Positions 4,016-34,017 of a stretch of DNA of 64,000 bases are shown piece by piece. The DNA lies in the sequence record PV357171.2; one strand, written 5' to 3'. Numbering within the stretch: the stretch's first letter is position 1; the number at the start of each line of letters is the position of its first letter. Origin of the DNA: a phage. Under the pieces are notes generated by a model that ran no database searches, was not told the DNA's origin, and saw only the letters and a list, made by a program, of their open reading frames with translations. The translations under genes were made by a program, and so were the position numbers.

Positions 4016-4095
4016 ACTGGTGACTAAACCCGATTGGAAATCGGTTGAGTGGTAGCAATACCGCCTTATGGGTTCAACTCCCATCTTTTCCGCCA
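4002..4095 (+). tRNA. tRNA-Ser (anticodon GGA), long variable arm
   Basis: Acceptor GGAAAAG/CTTTTCC, anticodon loop TTGGAAA, 94 nt, T-arm ATGGG-TTCAACT-CCCAT, 3' GCCA; overlaps the 3' end of the HNH CDS. Confidence 0.6.
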
Positions 4096-9642: not shown

Positions 9643-9987
9643 ATGACTATATTACTAATTCTTGTTACAACTTGGTTTTTAATCGGTGCTGGATATGCAA
9701 TAGCTATTATTAGACATTTGGATGAACATTCTGCTGAATGGTTTGTTAAATATCTACGCATTGATGATCAAGAACAGAAGTTTAAAGATGAAAAGCAGAA
9801 AAAAGCAGTAAATAATATGACAGCCAAAGAATGCTTGTTCTACATGCGTATTGTAGGGTTCTTTGGACTATTAGTTGCTGGCCCAATTGGTTCTACCATT
9901 GCTCCATATAAAGAAACAGTTGCTGACATCAAGTTGTGGAGAAATGCAGGGGTACTACGCAAAGCTAGAGAAACTAATATTACATAA
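9643..9987 (+). CDS. hypothetical membrane protein
   Basis: Internal ATG after GGAG chosen as start; two hydrophobic segments. Confidence 0.45.
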   Translation: MTILLILVTTWFLIGAGYAIAIIRHLDEHSAEWFVKYLRIDDQEQKFKDEKQKKAVNNMTAKECLFYMRIVGFFGLLVAGPIGSTIAPYKETVADIKLWRNAGVLRKARETNIT

Positions 9988-10032
9988 GATTGACACTAAG
10001 TCAGCTTACTAGCAAAAGCAAATAATGACAAA

Positions 10033-10068
10033 GCCCAGCCTGCACTTTTGCGACTGGGCTATTTTTAT
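10033..10068 (+). terminator. rho-independent terminator
   Basis: GCCCAG...CTGGGC hairpin followed by TATTTTTA. Confidence 0.5.
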
Positions 10069-10081
10069 AATAAAATTTTAG

Positions 10082-10110
10082 TTGCTTAGATGCCCAAACT
10101 TTTGTATAAT
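10082..10110 (+). promoter_or_regulatory. sigma70-type promoter (TTGCTT-N17-TATAAT)
   Basis: Hexamers with 17-bp spacer upstream of ORF 10142. Confidence 0.6.
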
Positions 10111-10141
10111 ATGTTTATAGATTGAGGCAAGAGGATTAAAT

Positions 10142-10840
10142 ATGAGGATTATTTCTAAGTTCGCCGATGTGTATGATTTGCAGAACAGTTTGTTCGACCC
10201 AGATCGTGTGTGGGAACGTAAAACTGAGGAGTTGCTGGTTAAAGTAACCGATGATGCAGAAAAGAATATTGTGCATACTCGCCAGGTATTTCGTGATGGT
10301 TCGCTATCTTTCCGTGGTGATTTCGAATACTTCGTAAACCCCCTATTTGTTGCAGGTGAAGTTTACTGGTTACATGAGCTGTACTGCTGGCATCCAGCAT
10401 TTAGCTTCAAAACGTTCGACCTCGACACTATGTTCGATAAAATGGAAGAGATGGGATTGCATGCTCGCTCTTACTTAATGGATAAGAGTCGTGGAGATGT
10501 TCGTGAAACAATGCGTGATCTGCTCGCTGAAGCAAAACCTAAAGCAGAACGTATCTTATCCGAACTGCGTGTACCGATTGCATATGTGAAAGGTATTAAA
10601 AAGAACGATAACGATGATGTTCGTAACTTCGTAATTCAGACTAACATTCGTTTCCATCAGTCCGGTATTCCGTGGCAGGAAATTGAAAGTAACTTATACC
10701 GTTTACACCAAGTTCTCGAACAGTATATCTTCGGTGTACTAGGAACTGGTGAGCCTGATATGATTAAAGTATCAGATAAAGACAGGTTAGCAGCGCATGG
10801 ATTTGATACAAAAACTTCTTTCAGGAATATGGCACGGTAA
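10142..10840 (+). CDS. hypothetical protein
   Basis: 232 aa; AAGAGGA Shine-Dalgarno. Confidence 0.6.
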   Translation: MRIISKFADVYDLQNSLFDPDRVWERKTEELLVKVTDDAEKNIVHTRQVFRDGSLSFRGDFEYFVNPLFVAGEVYWLHELYCWHPAFSFKTFDLDTMFDKMEEMGLHARSYLMDKSRGDVRETMRDLLAEAKPKAERILSELRVPIAYVKGIKKNDNDDVRNFVIQTNIRFHQSGIPWQEIESNLYRLHQVLEQYIFGVLGTGEPDMIKVSDKDRLAAHGFDTKTSFRNMAR

Positions 10841-22097: not shown

Positions 22098-22282
22098 TGG
22101 AAACTCTTTTTCTTTTAATGCTAGTAGGTTCCTTGCTAGTTATATTAGCACTTCTACTGATCTGCAATATTCTTAATAATAAGAATCTAGAGCTAAAGTG
22201 TGAAAACCAAATCCTTAATCGTGAACTTAAACAATATAACATAGCAGCGCACAAGCTACTAGACAAATTGGAGAATAAGTAA
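22097..22282 (+). CDS. hypothetical membrane protein
   Basis: 61 aa; TAATG overlap; hydrophobic N-terminus. Confidence 0.4.
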   Translation: METLFLLMLVGSLLVILALLLICNILNNKNLELKCENQILNRELKQYNIAAHKLLDKLENK

Positions 22283-22887
22283 TGACTTTATATGCACAAC
22301 AACCTGTTCAAGTAGTACCAGACCATGAATTAAATACATGGGATTATGATTTTAAAGACTTAACTGCCACTGTACAGTTCAAATCTATGAAATTAACCTT
22401 TGCGCACACTGATATTAAAGCCTGTAAAGATCTTGAGCATAAATTAAAAGAAGCTCGTAAGATCTTTGGCAAGGCTCGGATTCCAGCTGATAACCTTATT
22501 AACGCATTAATAGATGCTGGTTATAAACTCGTAAAGACTGAGGTGAACCGCCCTAGTACTCCTGTGACTGTTGGAGGTTCCTGGACCAAAAGTGGTATCG
22601 CATTTAATCCTAAAATAACGTCGGATTTGCACAATGTTCCATGTGGTGGCGTTATAGAAAATAATTCCTCATATCGAGTTGGTGAAGATTACGGCCCTTC
22701 TGTACAGTTGCAACATACTCAAGAAGCTTTTGAATCTGATATGCGAAGCGTAGCACCTGTGGATACTGAAGGTTTTAGAAGTCCCAGCTATGTTACTCAC
22801 TTTAATAATCTTAGGCCTGGGAGTATAAATGATACTATCCTTGAGGCGTTGGGAGCTGCTCTTAACGAAGATAAGAGAGGTAGTTAA
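22282..22887 (+). CDS. hypothetical protein
   Basis: 201 aa; TAATG overlap. Confidence 0.55.
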   Translation: MTLYAQQPVQVVPDHELNTWDYDFKDLTATVQFKSMKLTFAHTDIKACKDLEHKLKEARKIFGKARIPADNLINALIDAGYKLVKTEVNRPSTPVTVGGSWTKSGIAFNPKITSDLHNVPCGGVIENNSSYRVGEDYGPSVQLQHTQEAFESDMRSVAPVDTEGFRSPSYVTHFNNLRPGSINDTILEALGAALNEDKRGS

Positions 22888-22964: not shown

Positions 22965-23849
22965 ATGTATAACTTTAAAGATAAACTAAGACAAAATGCT
23001 GGTAAAACAAAACCTAAAGAGAACAATAATGTTCCTAATGCCAAAGTATTACCATTTCCAGAACTATCCCAAGAAGAAAAAGATAAGTTAGCATTTATGT
23101 TTGATGCACTTATAGGGCTAAATGGACGTTTATATTCCTCTCTCAATATTAATGAGAAACGTTTAGTAGAGATGTTTTGTAAACGTTACCAAGTTACTTC
23201 AAAGGGCAATTCTTATAAAGAAGGTGAGAAAGCATTTACAGTCTTAAAGATTAGCGCATATGCACATCGTTTCTTAGTTTATGGGTTGCAAATGGAATAC
23301 TTTACTATCCCATCATTTAGCTCTTTCCATATCTTTGAAGATGAACGAATGAATATTGATGATCTCTACGGGGATACATACAAATACTCAGGAAGTCCAT
23401 TCCACGATGCATTAAGGAGTTACCCATCTAACTATTTACCCATTAGAGCATCTCAAGGTAAAGCTAGCATCTTTGCTGTATACTCAGGATCTAAAGCATC
23501 GGATCTAGAAACTTATATATTTAAAGAGCGTAAATCTGTGCTTCCAGATGAAGCATTGTATAACAATCCATTGCTTCCAGAAAAAGAACCAGAAAAAATT
23601 GATGTAACCCCACCAATACCGTCTGACTCTCAGTATTTAATTTATGAGAAACAAGTTAAGTTATCCCTAGAAATTGGATTAGTTACACCGCTTGCTGCAG
23701 CATTCATAAATAGATATCTAGAAATTCCTGATGAGTTCCACACACGTTATAATACGAATATTCAGATAACGGATGAACTAATTGCGTTAGCAAAAGATAC
23801 ACCTACAGATACTGAGGCGTATCAAAAAGCATACCAAGAGTTACTATAA
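22965..23849 (+). CDS. hypothetical protein
   Basis: 294 aa; GGGAGA before ATG; last + strand gene before the repeat-rich block. Confidence 0.55.
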   Translation: MYNFKDKLRQNAGKTKPKENNNVPNAKVLPFPELSQEEKDKLAFMFDALIGLNGRLYSSLNINEKRLVEMFCKRYQVTSKGNSYKEGEKAFTVLKISAYAHRFLVYGLQMEYFTIPSFSSFHIFEDERMNIDDLYGDTYKYSGSPFHDALRSYPSNYLPIRASQGKASIFAVYSGSKASDLETYIFKERKSVLPDEALYNNPLLPEKEPEKIDVTPPIPSDSQYLIYEKQVKLSLEIGLVTPLAAAFINRYLEIPDEFHTRYNTNIQITDELIALAKDTPTDTEAYQKAYQELL

Positions 23850-23905
23850 TACTCTGCATGTCTCGGTGCACAATACCTGTACCGAGACTCAAATACAAAC
23901 TCTCG

Positions 23906-23934
23906 TTGACAGATAGCTAAATGTATGTTATCAT
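23906..23934 (+). promoter_or_regulatory. candidate sigma70 promoter (TTGACA-N17-TATCAT)
   Basis: Consensus -35 with 17-bp spacer; no ORF follows, it reads into the repeat region. Confidence 0.3.
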
Positions 23935-24243
23935 AACTCTATGAGTTAATAGAATTAACCATTTAGAGTTGCCACACAGAAGGTGTGGTGGTTCAGTAAT
24001 TTAAAATTACTAACTTGTAGCGGAGGATACGGAGCGACAGGACAAGTTAATAAGTAATTTAATATAAATTACTAGAAACATCACGAGACCTTCTGGCGGG
24101 GGGCAAAGCTCTATATGAGAACCCTGGGGGATCTTATATTTAAAATAAAAGTAAAACTTTTGACCACATAATTTACATTCAAGATGATACACCTGTTGCC
24201 GCTCATCTGCTAGGATGGCACAACACTTTCTTCTAGACTCCTA

Positions 24244-24572
24244 AGTTTCTAGGAAATTGATAAGCACAAATTCTAGAGATCACACAAAAATATTCATCGG
24301 ATTTGCACATATTCTAGGGCAGTTTTCACTGTTCCTAGAAACTCCAGCAATAGGCGGTTAATACAGGGCGGTTATAGGGAGGGCGGTTATTTCTAGGAGA
24401 CATTTTTTGAAAACACATTTCCAGAAATTACTGTCGGATTTGCACATTGTGTTTCTAGAAATTTATGGTCGGATTTGCACAAACGCCTAAGTTTTTAGGA
24501 ACTCTTACTCTCCTGAAAATAGCAGCATTATTTCGGGCCGAAGGCCCATGATTGCCTGAGTTTTTAGAGCCA
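24244..24572 (+). repeat. about six dispersed copies of GTTT(C/T)TAG(A/G)AA motif
   Basis: Copies read near 24244, 24321, 24380, 24450, 24487 and 24559. Confidence 0.5.
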
Positions 24573-25034
24573 CAAGAATTTTCACTTGTCAAGCTATTTT
24601 GCCCCATTTTGCTAATAAAATTTTACTTTTTCTGCACCTATCTCAAATTTCCCCAAATTATCTCAACTCTTCCCCAAAATCCCCGCAAATCAGGTGCTCC
24701 GCACCAATCCTGCGCCTACTTCCTTCTAGTCCCAAAATTTCTCTCACTCTCTCATCCTCTCCTCAAACCTATACAATCACACACCCTCTCATCGAAGTCA
24801 TAAAAATCTTGTCGGATTCGCACATCTCAACACATGTCGGATTTGCACATACTCTAGCTAATCCCACAGGATTCGAACGCAGTTCGTGATTGCTGGAGTT
24901 TTTGGGAAAATTCATTGTCGGATTTGCACACTATAAAAATTTTTCGGGTCGGATTTGCACACTACCAAAAATTGTCGGATTCGCACATACACGCCCACGC
25001 GTAATCCATGGGGGCAAATGTCGGTTTTGCACAA
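24297..25034 (+). repeat. nine direct copies of 15-bp motif GTCGGAT(T/C)TGCACA (iteron-like array)
   Basis: Copies at about 24297, 24433, 24468, 24811, 24836, 24917, 24948, 24974 and 25020, all same orientation. Confidence 0.7.
24595..24795 (+). repeat. about 200-bp polypyrimidine (C/T-rich, G-poor) tract on the + strand
   Basis: Strong strand asymmetry with repeated CCCCAAA(A)T units. Confidence 0.6.
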
Positions 25035-25059
25035 AAGCGCAGGGCAATTGCCCTGCTCG

Positions 25060-25255
25060 CCTGAATGCGAATAAAAATAAGAATCATTCTCATTTAAAAA
25101 GTGGAATGCGAATGAGAATCATTATCATTTAGAAAACGGAATGAGAACTATTCAAGAAGTGAAATGATTCTCATTTAAAAAGTGGAGTGATTATCGATTA
25201 GCTAGTGAAATGCGAATGATAATGATTCGCATTTAAAAACGGAAGTGAGAAACAC
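25060..25255 (+). repeat. four degenerate tandem units sharing (C/T)CATTTA(A/G)AAA(GT/C)GGA(A/G)TG and GAATGCGAATGA cores
   Basis: Units read at about 25089, 25124, 25168 and 25228. Confidence 0.5.
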
Positions 25256-25266
25256 TGCTATTTAAG

Positions 25267-25275
25267 TTATCCACA
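25267..25275 (+). promoter_or_regulatory. DnaA-box consensus 9-mer TTATCCACA
   Basis: Perfect match to the high-affinity DnaA box consensus. Confidence 0.5.
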
Positions 25276-25327
25276 GACTTATTAACAGCACGATTTGACT
25301 TGACAGAATCCTAGCCATTTTGAGGCG

Positions 25328-25336
25328 TTATCCACA
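25328..25336 (+). promoter_or_regulatory. DnaA-box consensus 9-mer TTATCCACA (inside left inverted repeat)
   Basis: Perfect 9-mer. Confidence 0.5.
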
Positions 25337-25491
25337 GACTTATCCCCAGGTTATTCTACTGTATAAATATACAGTATTCCTATGCAGTGAATAATTCTAA
25401 TATAGGCTTAAAACGTCCTGAGTGGTGGTACTAAAACAAAGGGGTATTTATCTGAAGGACTGAAAAACTGGGATCTGCTCCCCGCTTGTTA

Positions 25492-25686
25492 TCAGTCCGG
25501 TAATTGATGCGTGATCTTCTCCTCCTCCCCGTAGGAATCCACCAAATGCTGATAATACCCATCGTTATCATAAATCACTTTATCATAATCGCCACGCTCG
25601 ACCGCTTGCCGATTTTCCAGCGTATCAGGCACAAAGAAAGTATCAACGGTAACAGTAGTTTTAGTTACAACAATTTTATCACTCAT
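25492..25686 (-). CDS. hypothetical protein
   Basis: 64-aa ORF inside the inverted-repeat cassette. Confidence 0.35.
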   Translation of the reverse strand: MSDKIVVTKTTVTVDTFFVPDTLENRQAVERGDYDKVIYDNDGYYQHLVDSYGEEEKITHQLPD

Positions 25687-25812
25687 AACGCCATCGCCCC
25701 TAGAATGAGAATGATTATTATTACCATTACAAGCCCGTTACTAAATCGTAAACGCTGGGAATGTTTACCAGCGGTATTATTAGATTTATGGGATTGCGTT
25801 TTACGCCACCAG

Positions 25813-27028: not shown

Positions 27029-27357
27029 TTTAACGCCTCCTAGAAATCAGGGAAAATTTTCAATCCACCGTTTTGGTGTAAAGGCATTATAACAAAAAAG
27101 GCCACCATAAAAGGCGACCTTTACAAAACTTTACATTAGGTTAATTATTACTCGCTTTCGGTGCTAACGGTAAAAGTAGAAATATCAATACCTTTCACCA
27201 TTTCCAGCATTGCCGCCACCTGGCCGCCGCGTTGGGTCTTTACTTTAATATTACCCCACAGCGTTTAGCTCGTTAGAAAGCGATTTAGGCCGCTTATTTT
27301 GGGCATCATTATAGTATGCTTCCCATTTACCCTGTATATTTATACAGTGGAATAACC

Positions 27358-33120: not shown

Positions 33121-33855
33121 ATGAATCAAGTTAAAACGAATATTACCCGTAATTTCCCGCATATTTCCCGCGTCATGATTTGGGATCTTGATGGCACTAT
33201 CGTTAATTCATTCCATCGTGTCGCGCCTTGCTTTGATAGCGACGGGAATTTAAATTTAAATAAGTATAAAAATGAGGCTTGCAAACATGATTTAATAATG
33301 CAAGATACTTTATTGCCTTTGGTGGAATATATGCGCCAATGCATGAATGACGCAAATACTTTAAACATTATTTGCACCGCTCGACTGATGAGCAAATCAG
33401 ACTATTATTATTTGCGTAAACAAGGATTGCGCGGGCGTGGTGATAGTAATATCCGTGTATTTTCCCGCGATACACTGCATAAATATTTTGAGGCTGATAA
33501 GGTTAGCGAAATATACCACAGCAAAGACGCAGTTTATAAATCGTATTATTTTGAGCTATTCAAACAACTATATCCGAACGCTGATTTTACAATGATTGAT
33601 GATCATAAAGGTGTATTATCAGCGGCAGCGTCATACGGATTTAAAACGCTGGACGCGCAAGCCGTTAATGATATTCTATCAATCGGCGTGGCATTGATAG
33701 GCGGAACCTTTATTGATGAATCTCTCGATGATGATAATGATTATCAGTTCCTAGCGGACCGATTGAAATTATGTTGGGAAAGTATGACCGAGGAAGAACG
33801 CGCAGAATATAGTTGCAGCCCGCAACAATATATTGAGAAATTAAAAGTTGCGTAA
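33121..33855 (+). CDS. dmp: HAD-superfamily phosphatase, 5'-deoxyribonucleotidase (dmp-like)
   Basis: 244 aa; DLDGT HAD motif I near the N-terminus; location in the pre-early block. Confidence 0.6.
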   Translation: MNQVKTNITRNFPHISRVMIWDLDGTIVNSFHRVAPCFDSDGNLNLNKYKNEACKHDLIMQDTLLPLVEYMRQCMNDANTLNIICTARLMSKSDYYYLRKQGLRGRGDSNIRVFSRDTLHKYFEADKVSEIYHSKDAVYKSYYFELFKQLYPNADFTMIDDHKGVLSAAASYGFKTLDAQAVNDILSIGVALIGGTFIDESLDDDNDYQFLADRLKLCWESMTEEERAEYSCSPQQYIEKLKVA

Positions 33856-34017
33856 TAATTAAAGTTGAAATAGTCACGGTGTGTAATGATAACATGCCGT
33901 GACTATTAGCTTGCTAAGTACCGGGCGGTAATGAGACTCATTCTCATCTGGGGGGCCACTGCACCCACCCACGCGTACGTAATCCAAAGAATTTGGCAAA
34001 AGTCATTTTAGTGCTAA

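Follow-up and report, generated by a model that had tools for sequence, protein, structure and literature searches.

Direct repeat D of T5-like phages: a conserved array of putative protein-binding sites on both sides of the right genome end

Introduction

[quoted passage not shown] T5 halts after 8% of its DNA has been transferred and then restarts, a question dating from the 1960s, and a 2026 paper still describes the mechanism of second-step transfer as poorly understood. The signals that generate the exact 10-kb terminal repeats of these phages appear unstudied.

A first-pass annotation of the stretch of phage DNA analysed here (64,000 nucleotides of record PV357171.2, hereafter the window) had picked out the repeats and proposed them as a candidate injection-stop or origin-like control region. 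The copies are annotated as 'direct repeat D' in T5 and the feature is therefore already known. The present analysis adds two things: how widely the motif occurs in the family, and the fixed position it keeps relative to the right genome end. The element itself is not new.

Results

Searching the window with GTCGGATYTGCACA at up to two mismatches returned 11 matches where 0.35 were expected by chance. The highest value in a shuffle control was 2, and none of the 100 shuffles reached 11. Nine of the matches, all on the + strand, form an array spanning 24296-25033, so the nine same-orientation copies first reported are real; the motif as then written has 14 letters rather than 15, and its coordinates were off by one base. 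Compared with GTCGGATTTGCACA, five of the nine copies are exact and four are one base off. Their start-to-start intervals are irregular (137, 35, 343, 25, 81, 31, 26 and 46 nt). A tenth copy, also exact, lies at 22620..22633 on the + strand, within a T5.019-like ORF (22282-22887) and 1.9 kb outside the terminal repeat, and all ten copies in the window are on one strand. The eleventh match, at 33389 on the - strand, is weak, with two mismatches.

The window comes from a T5-like phage that is about 95% identical to T5 (over 1.4 kb at the array) and is written in the reverse orientation. The same sites are annotated as copies 1-10 of 'direct repeat D' in GenBank AY587007, where the array occupies T5 positions 9672-10409. 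In GenBank AY543070 a feature named 'injection stop signal (iss)' overlaps the array and takes in copies 1-6; the left terminal repeat end is marked as well, and the major single-strand nick is marked beside copy 1. Davison's 2020 preprint (10.1101/866236) places nine DRD repeats in Repeat Region 3, at the injection-stop (iss) locus. Judged by sequence, the array is the T5 'direct repeat D' (DRD) of Repeat Region 3, the large non-coding block where the terminal repeat meets the unique genome. It is one-for-one orthologous to DRD as described in T5 (Heusterspreute et al. 1987; Wang et al. 2005; Davison 2020), with the same order and spacing. The two differ by point changes only: the TTC variant is found in copies 2 and 6 here and in copies 3 and 6 in T5, and copy 1 here reads GTCGGTTTTGCACA. 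A literature search on the motif string gave no match. The earlier suggestion of an injection-stop candidate was sound as to place, with copies 1-6 inside the AY543070 iss, and not new, having long been annotated as DRD.

In T5 numbering, copies 9 (24296..24309, ATCGGATTTGCACA), 8 (24433..24446, exact) and 7 (24468..24481, exact) lie outside the terminal repeat. Copy 6 (24811..24824, GTCGGATTCGCACA) lies inside it and is followed by copies 5 (24836..24849), 4 (24917..24930) and 3 (24948..24961), all exact, by copy 2 (24974..24987, again GTCGGATTCGCACA) and by copy 1 (25020..25033, GTCGGTTTTGCACA), whose 3' half, TTTTGCACA, agrees with the relaxed DnaA-box consensus at every position. All nine are on the + strand. 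The array sits at the terminal-repeat junction, beside the 7.9% nick, palindromes and DnaA boxes.

The DRD block is non-coding, as had been claimed from the letters of the window: both T5 GenBank records (AY587007 and AY543070) are free of annotated CDS there, and none of the five ORFs (47-96 aa) that overlap the block in the window has a PHROG match. The block lies where two operons converge, with the last early gene (22965-23849) on the + strand and the pre-early genes, from about 25430, on the - strand. None of A1, A2 and the two early proteins adjoining the array matches a Pfam family, and no Rep-like family was found among the neighbouring genes. A2 falls in a PHROG annotated as 'DNA binding protein' and A1 in one annotated as 'DNA transfer protein'.

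Window position 24566|24567 (GTTTTTA|GAGCCACA) marks the inner boundary of the terminal repeat, the mature right genome end. The end of copy 7 is 86 nt before it and copy 6 begins 244 nt after it. The placing of the array at the edge of the pre-early block therefore needs correcting: it straddles the inner terminal-repeat boundary, with three copies outside and six inside. The two DRD clusters flank a repeat-free zone of roughly 250-750 bp, across the phages compared, that contains the boundary. In position only, this is the pac- or cos-type arrangement of repeated elements next to a cut site.

The annotated inner boundary lies inside the DRD array in nine of ten phages. In T5, EscoHU1, Sepoy and KpGranit it is at the identical aligned base, TTTTTA|GAGCCACAGGAATTTT..TTGTCAA; four more contigs end exactly at that base and one is a single base off, so that at least eight records are identical. 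In chee24 and chee130_1 the annotated boundary is deeper inside the repeat by about 207 nt, though it too lies between DRD7 and DRD6; in Kenya-K20 it is placed between DRD2 and DRD1, with the nick site about 45 nt away. Such deviations may be artefacts of method, possibly nick-derived read ends, or real variation.

The boundary lies within the best-conserved block of the region, about 100 nt long (24523..24622), which also holds a hairpin, GGGCCgaaGGCCC, and TTGTCAAGCTATTTTGCCCC. The gap between DRD7 and DRD6 is filled by a C-rich, G-poor tract on the + strand (24600..24800; GC skew -0.64 to -0.75) with copies of the CCCCAAAAT-type 'direct repeat A'. A similar C-rich tract occurs at the same place in KpGranit, My1, Wyman and VF16.

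Alignment with T5 shows that the window passes from the early genes through the terminal repeat and past the T5 left end, beyond which its sequence has no match to T5 1-50,000 and is presumably the late region. As the window continues past the T5 left end into non-matching sequence, the source record holds a single collapsed terminal repeat and resembles a concatemer junction. The terminal repeat occupies 24567 to about 33964, the far end being predicted from a left-terminus motif. This motif, a GGGCGGTAA-TGAGACTnnTTCTCAT element, is found 41-43 nt from the left genome end of T5, Sepoy, My1 and VF16, with a looser match in KpGranit; the window copy at 33923-33947 predicts a left terminus at about 33964. 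The element is a candidate end-cut signal. No DRD was found at the left genome terminus. With a different motif there, DRD is not required for cutting as such.

DRD is the most repeated cis element of the region and among its most conserved. Its number, order, strand and spacing are kept in T5, Kenya-K20, chee24, EscoHU1, chee130_1, Sepoy, ende and oldekolle; in more distant phages the motif and strand are kept and the spacing is not. The motif search across relatives proposed by the first-pass annotation thus found the array conserved in number, order and sequence among close relatives, and in motif and strand among distant ones. The T5-type phages (Markadamsvirinae) have three copies outside the repeat and six inside. 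Both the Klebsiella phage KpGranit (Sugarlandvirus) and the Pectobacterium phage My1 (Mccorquodalevirinae) have four outside and six inside, the Vibrio phage Wyman (Thalassavirus) has two and seven, and the Vibrio phage VF16 has at least one and at least five. A 12-nt core, TCGGATTTGCAC, the strand and the clustered layout are common to phages of E. coli, Salmonella, Klebsiella, Pectobacterium and Vibrio. The architecture of the region has been inherited from a common ancestor, and the shared arrangement is therefore not independent evidence from each lineage.

Across 102 sites from 12 phages the core is near-invariant and positions more than 1-2 bases outside it carry little information, a contrast somewhat inflated because the sites were chosen by their similarity to the core. 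When eight related phages are aligned, the share of invariant columns is 74% within DRD and 53% elsewhere in the span. The A2 protein of the window phage shares only 42% of its amino acids with A2 of Wyman, yet the core is identical in the two. A2 homologues were found in every lineage that carries DRD.

A scan of viral contigs found 41 stretches, 40 of them on contigs of about 96-123 kb, the range of T5-like genomes; the exception is a tandem duplication in a coding region. The possibility that DRD copies a host regulatory site was also examined and rejected. A scan of 185,579 bacterial and archaeal genomes for two core motifs no more than 33 nt apart, a search blind to single sites, gave eight matches, none of them on an enterobacterial or Vibrio chromosome. 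The matches include tandem duplications of whole units in unrelated taxa, a T5-like contig (confirmed by tblastn) from a metagenome bin and a pair on a short contig from an Alphaproteobacteria bin. A further pair, two adjacent exact core motifs, lies at 4034-4063 of a 38-kb unclassified bacterial contig (L018) with no protein similarity to the window ORFs; by eye the pair is in a non-coding gap beside a gene that looks like an SRP-receptor type. This pair is probably due to chance and could be the site of an unrelated regulator.

Several other elements are packed around the array. Three copies of GGCGGTTA lie on the + strand at 24353..24389, between DRD9 and DRD8; this motif also occurs 41-43 nt inside the left terminus of five lineages, and GGCGGTTA is present at the matching place in My1. 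The tetranucleotide CTAG, otherwise rare, recurs about eight times at 24225-24460 in TTCTAG(A/G)-type motifs interleaved with DRD7-9, and many CTAGs occur in the corresponding stretch of Wyman and VF16. On the other side, four bases after DRD1, is the homologue of the major T5 single-strand nick (7.9%, GCGC) with palindrome J (25037..25056). No DRD with up to two mismatches was found near the homologue of T5 nick 2, at about 11.7 kb in the window.

The T5 'direct repeat C' palindromes, of TGAGAATCATTCTCA type, follow at 25060..25240. They resemble the TGAGACTCATTCTCAT part of the left-terminus element, a similarity that is short and has weak E-values. The palindromes TGAGAATCATTCTCA and GATAATGATTCGCAT in this stretch also resemble the E. 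coli Fur box, TGATAATCATTATCA, a curious likeness given that the T5 receptor FhuA is Fur-regulated. In Wyman the place of the C palindromes is taken by about 16 tandem 8-nt units, TCTATCCA or TCTAGGCT (L012 321-448), between the DRD cluster and the DnaA boxes.

Beyond the palindromes, at 25267..25376 on the + strand, are two DnaA boxes and a LexA-type box. The DnaA boxes, TTATCCACA at 25267 and 25328, are those that had been noted as adjacent to the array. The LexA-type box, TACTGTATAAATATACAGTA (25357-25376; 'palindrome D' in T5), fits the consensus of the LexA (SOS) box. A copy with three mismatches occurs in the partner inverted repeat (27330-27349), each of the two being beside DnaA boxes, and My1, Wyman and VF16 have similar LexA-type boxes next to DnaA boxes. 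Davison (10.1101/866236) favours the IRD'-spacer-IRC' element, which corresponds to window 25267..25376, as the iss; LexA is absent from that preprint.

Upstream of the array, just after the last early gene, is a near-consensus sigma-70 promoter (23906..23934, + strand; TTGACA-17-TATCAT with the TG of an extended -10, TTGACA-17-TGTTATCAT) that points at the array. It is at the same place in all ten phages compared, including Pectobacterium and Vibrio phages. The promoter and a segment of about 200 nt that follows it occupy 23906-24150. This segment folds far better than its shuffles (z = -6.5) and forms three hairpins: a small one at the 5' end, a long one, and one at the 3' end with a G run. 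The z-score of the same segment is below -5.8 in T5, Kenya-K20, chee24 and Sepoy and weaker in EscoHU1, KpGranit, Wyman and VF16. Neither T5 record annotates this segment. No Rfam family reached its gathering score at 23700-25700, the sole match (E<=1) being BSR0653 with 16 bits against a gathering score of 627. The segment may be an undescribed non-coding RNA.

Discussion

The best reading of DRD is as an array of putative sites for one sequence-specific DNA-binding protein. An asymmetric motif on one strand, the turnover of copies with the motif kept and a non-coding block between converging operons all favour such sites, and the same features point away from DNA secondary structure, an operator or an origin. 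Each DRD would be an asymmetric recognition site of about 13-14 bp, centred on the core TCGGATTTGCAC. We know of no fit between DRD and the sites of CRP, Fis, IHF, PurR, FadR, XerCD/dif, Chi or sigma-54. The likeness of its reverse complement to the T-loop of tRNA (TGCRAATCC against TTCRAATCC) was set aside as a probable coincidence.

The motif consists of two parts, TCGGA and a DnaA-box-like TTTGCACA, and the second part raises the question of whether DnaA itself is the ligand. The repeats would then be low-affinity boxes that extend a complex nucleated at TTATCCACA, an extension of Davison's model in which membrane-bound DnaA stops injection. The 3' half ATTTGCACA fits eight of the nine positions of TTWTNCACA, DRD1 (TTTTGCACA) fits all nine, consensus boxes lie in the same orientation 230-300 nt away, and the specificity of DnaA is conserved across the host range, in keeping with the invariance of the motif. 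The remaining copies fit at only 7-8 of the nine positions, however, and the conserved TCGGA half is not accounted for: the 5' half, (G/A)TCGGA, lies outside the DnaA box and is equally conserved in the groups of enteric phages, if less so in the Vibrio phages. A second mismatch appears at the last base, which is C in the Vibrio phages and often T in My1. TTWTNCACA is not enriched in the window (11 found, 7.6 expected), and the spacing of DRD is irregular, unlike the low-affinity DnaA arrays of oriC, which are spaced by 2 bp. We consider binding by DnaA quite improbable.

Replication-origin iterons or a partition site, the origin-like role first suggested, would also bring many same-oriented repeats together near DnaA boxes. 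The spacing of 25-343 nt is irregular and out of helical phase, however, no initiator or partition gene is adjacent, and between the clusters the DNA is rich in C and not in A and T. The origins of T5 have been placed close to the middle of the genome, and replication functions are off the first-transferred DNA (10.1101/866236). The origin-like role thus falls, lacking regular iteron spacing and an adjacent initiator gene, and it is the least credible of the readings we considered. Same-oriented repeats near consensus DnaA boxes are what DRD shares with the low-affinity DnaA arrays of oriC and with plasmid iterons; unlike them, it has no regular spacing, unwinding element or initiator gene, and half of its motif is unrelated to the DnaA box. 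A CRISPR array, with repeats of 24-48 nt, a fixed period and unique spacers of similar length, was rejected as it had been at first: the motif is 14 nt, the gaps are irregular (11-329 nt) and the sequence between copies is conserved in relatives. It is also very hard to credit that the array acts as RNA, with read-through from 23906 giving a transcript whose nine GUCGGAUUUGCACA motifs would be a decoy for an RNA-binding factor. A near-consensus promoter is aimed at the array in all ten phages, and every copy is on the strand that would be transcribed, but the promoter is followed by a separate structured segment of about 200 nt that closes with a hairpin and a U-rich run, no Rfam family reaches its gathering score in the region, and direct repeats cannot fold into the hairpin loops in which protein-sponge RNAs typically present their motifs.

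Two roles for a DNA-binding protein at DRD deserve more weight. One, which we regard as somewhat doubtful, concerns DNA transfer. The repeats would bind the pre-early protein A2, together with A1, or else a factor of the host envelope or cytoplasm, and would hold the genome at the stop or re-engage it for second-step transfer, in the manner of a directional uptake or loading signal. DRD1-6 lie within the annotated iss. Four bases separate DRD1 from the major nick, and its start is about 50 bp past the estimate of the shear point, at 7.9%. Second-step transfer depends on A1 and A2, which belong to PHROGs annotated as 'DNA transfer protein' and 'DNA binding protein', A2 homologues accompany DRD in every lineage, and a single orientation suits a directional process. 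The stop depends on the cell, since ejection is complete in vitro; a block internal to the capsid or tail was rejected as its sole cause for the same reason. However, transfer does not explain why copies should persist both inside and outside the repeat boundary, or why that boundary should stay inside the array as copies turn over, and a specific A2 site has never been reported.

The other role, in genome-end formation or packaging, is pac-like; we hold it tentatively, and favour it slightly over a pause or restart of DNA transfer. Packaging is preferred because a precise, conserved cut retains a cluster on each side, as at the pac sites of P1 and SPP1. The two clusters share one orientation, and the repeat-free zone between them contains the right-end cut site. 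The protein bound there, in the simplest case the small terminase or else an accessory factor, would wrap or loop the junction DNA and so present the cut site. The six inner copies would be on the DNA that enters the capsid first; this step assumes that the left end, which is injected first, is packaged last, a packaging direction that we infer. The same complex, just distal to the stop of first-step transfer, could, speculatively, influence the pause or restart of transfer. Against packaging, published work treats the repeats as part of the injection stop region, and only about 50 bp separate DRD1 from the estimated 7.9% shear point. A search of the open-access literature on T5 terminase and packaging signals found nothing useful.

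A more elaborate form of the packaging reading seems unlikely, though it would tie the two problems together. The DRD clusters would be the array on which a packaging complex sets the exact right end of T5-like genomes, coupled to two-step transfer and acting with GGGCGGT(T/A)A and the TGAGAnnCATTCTCA palindromes. These two elements adjoin each other at the left terminus and are scattered around the inner boundary. If this reading were true, phages with long exact terminal repeats would have in DRD their first described recognition signal. A core kept from E. coli to Vibrio phages, together with the bracketing of the cut site, turns an old descriptive feature into a testable one.

A role of DRD in packaging can be set against three well-known systems. 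The pac site of P1 has repeated hexamers on both sides of the cleavage region, and that of SPP1 has the order pacL-pacC-pacR; these sites span about 160-270 bp and serve headful packaging. DRD resembles them in having short repeated elements clustered on both sides of a repeat-free stretch with the cut, but it spans about 740 bp in a phage with exact terminal repeats of 9-10 kb, and binding by terminase is putative. In lambda, cosB has three asymmetric R sites of about 16 bp that are bound by gpNu1 and lie on one side of the cut, plus an IHF site. DRD is similar in having several asymmetric sites near a cut, on DNA that would be packaged first, and differs in having six plus three sites, on both sides of the cut. 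In T7 the SRL and SRR arrays, made of 7-bp near-tandem units, lie at both terminal-repeat boundaries. As in T7, short direct-repeat arrays stand beside an exact terminal-repeat boundary in a phage that injects its left end first, whereas the DRD units are 14 bp long, dispersed and confined to the inner boundary.
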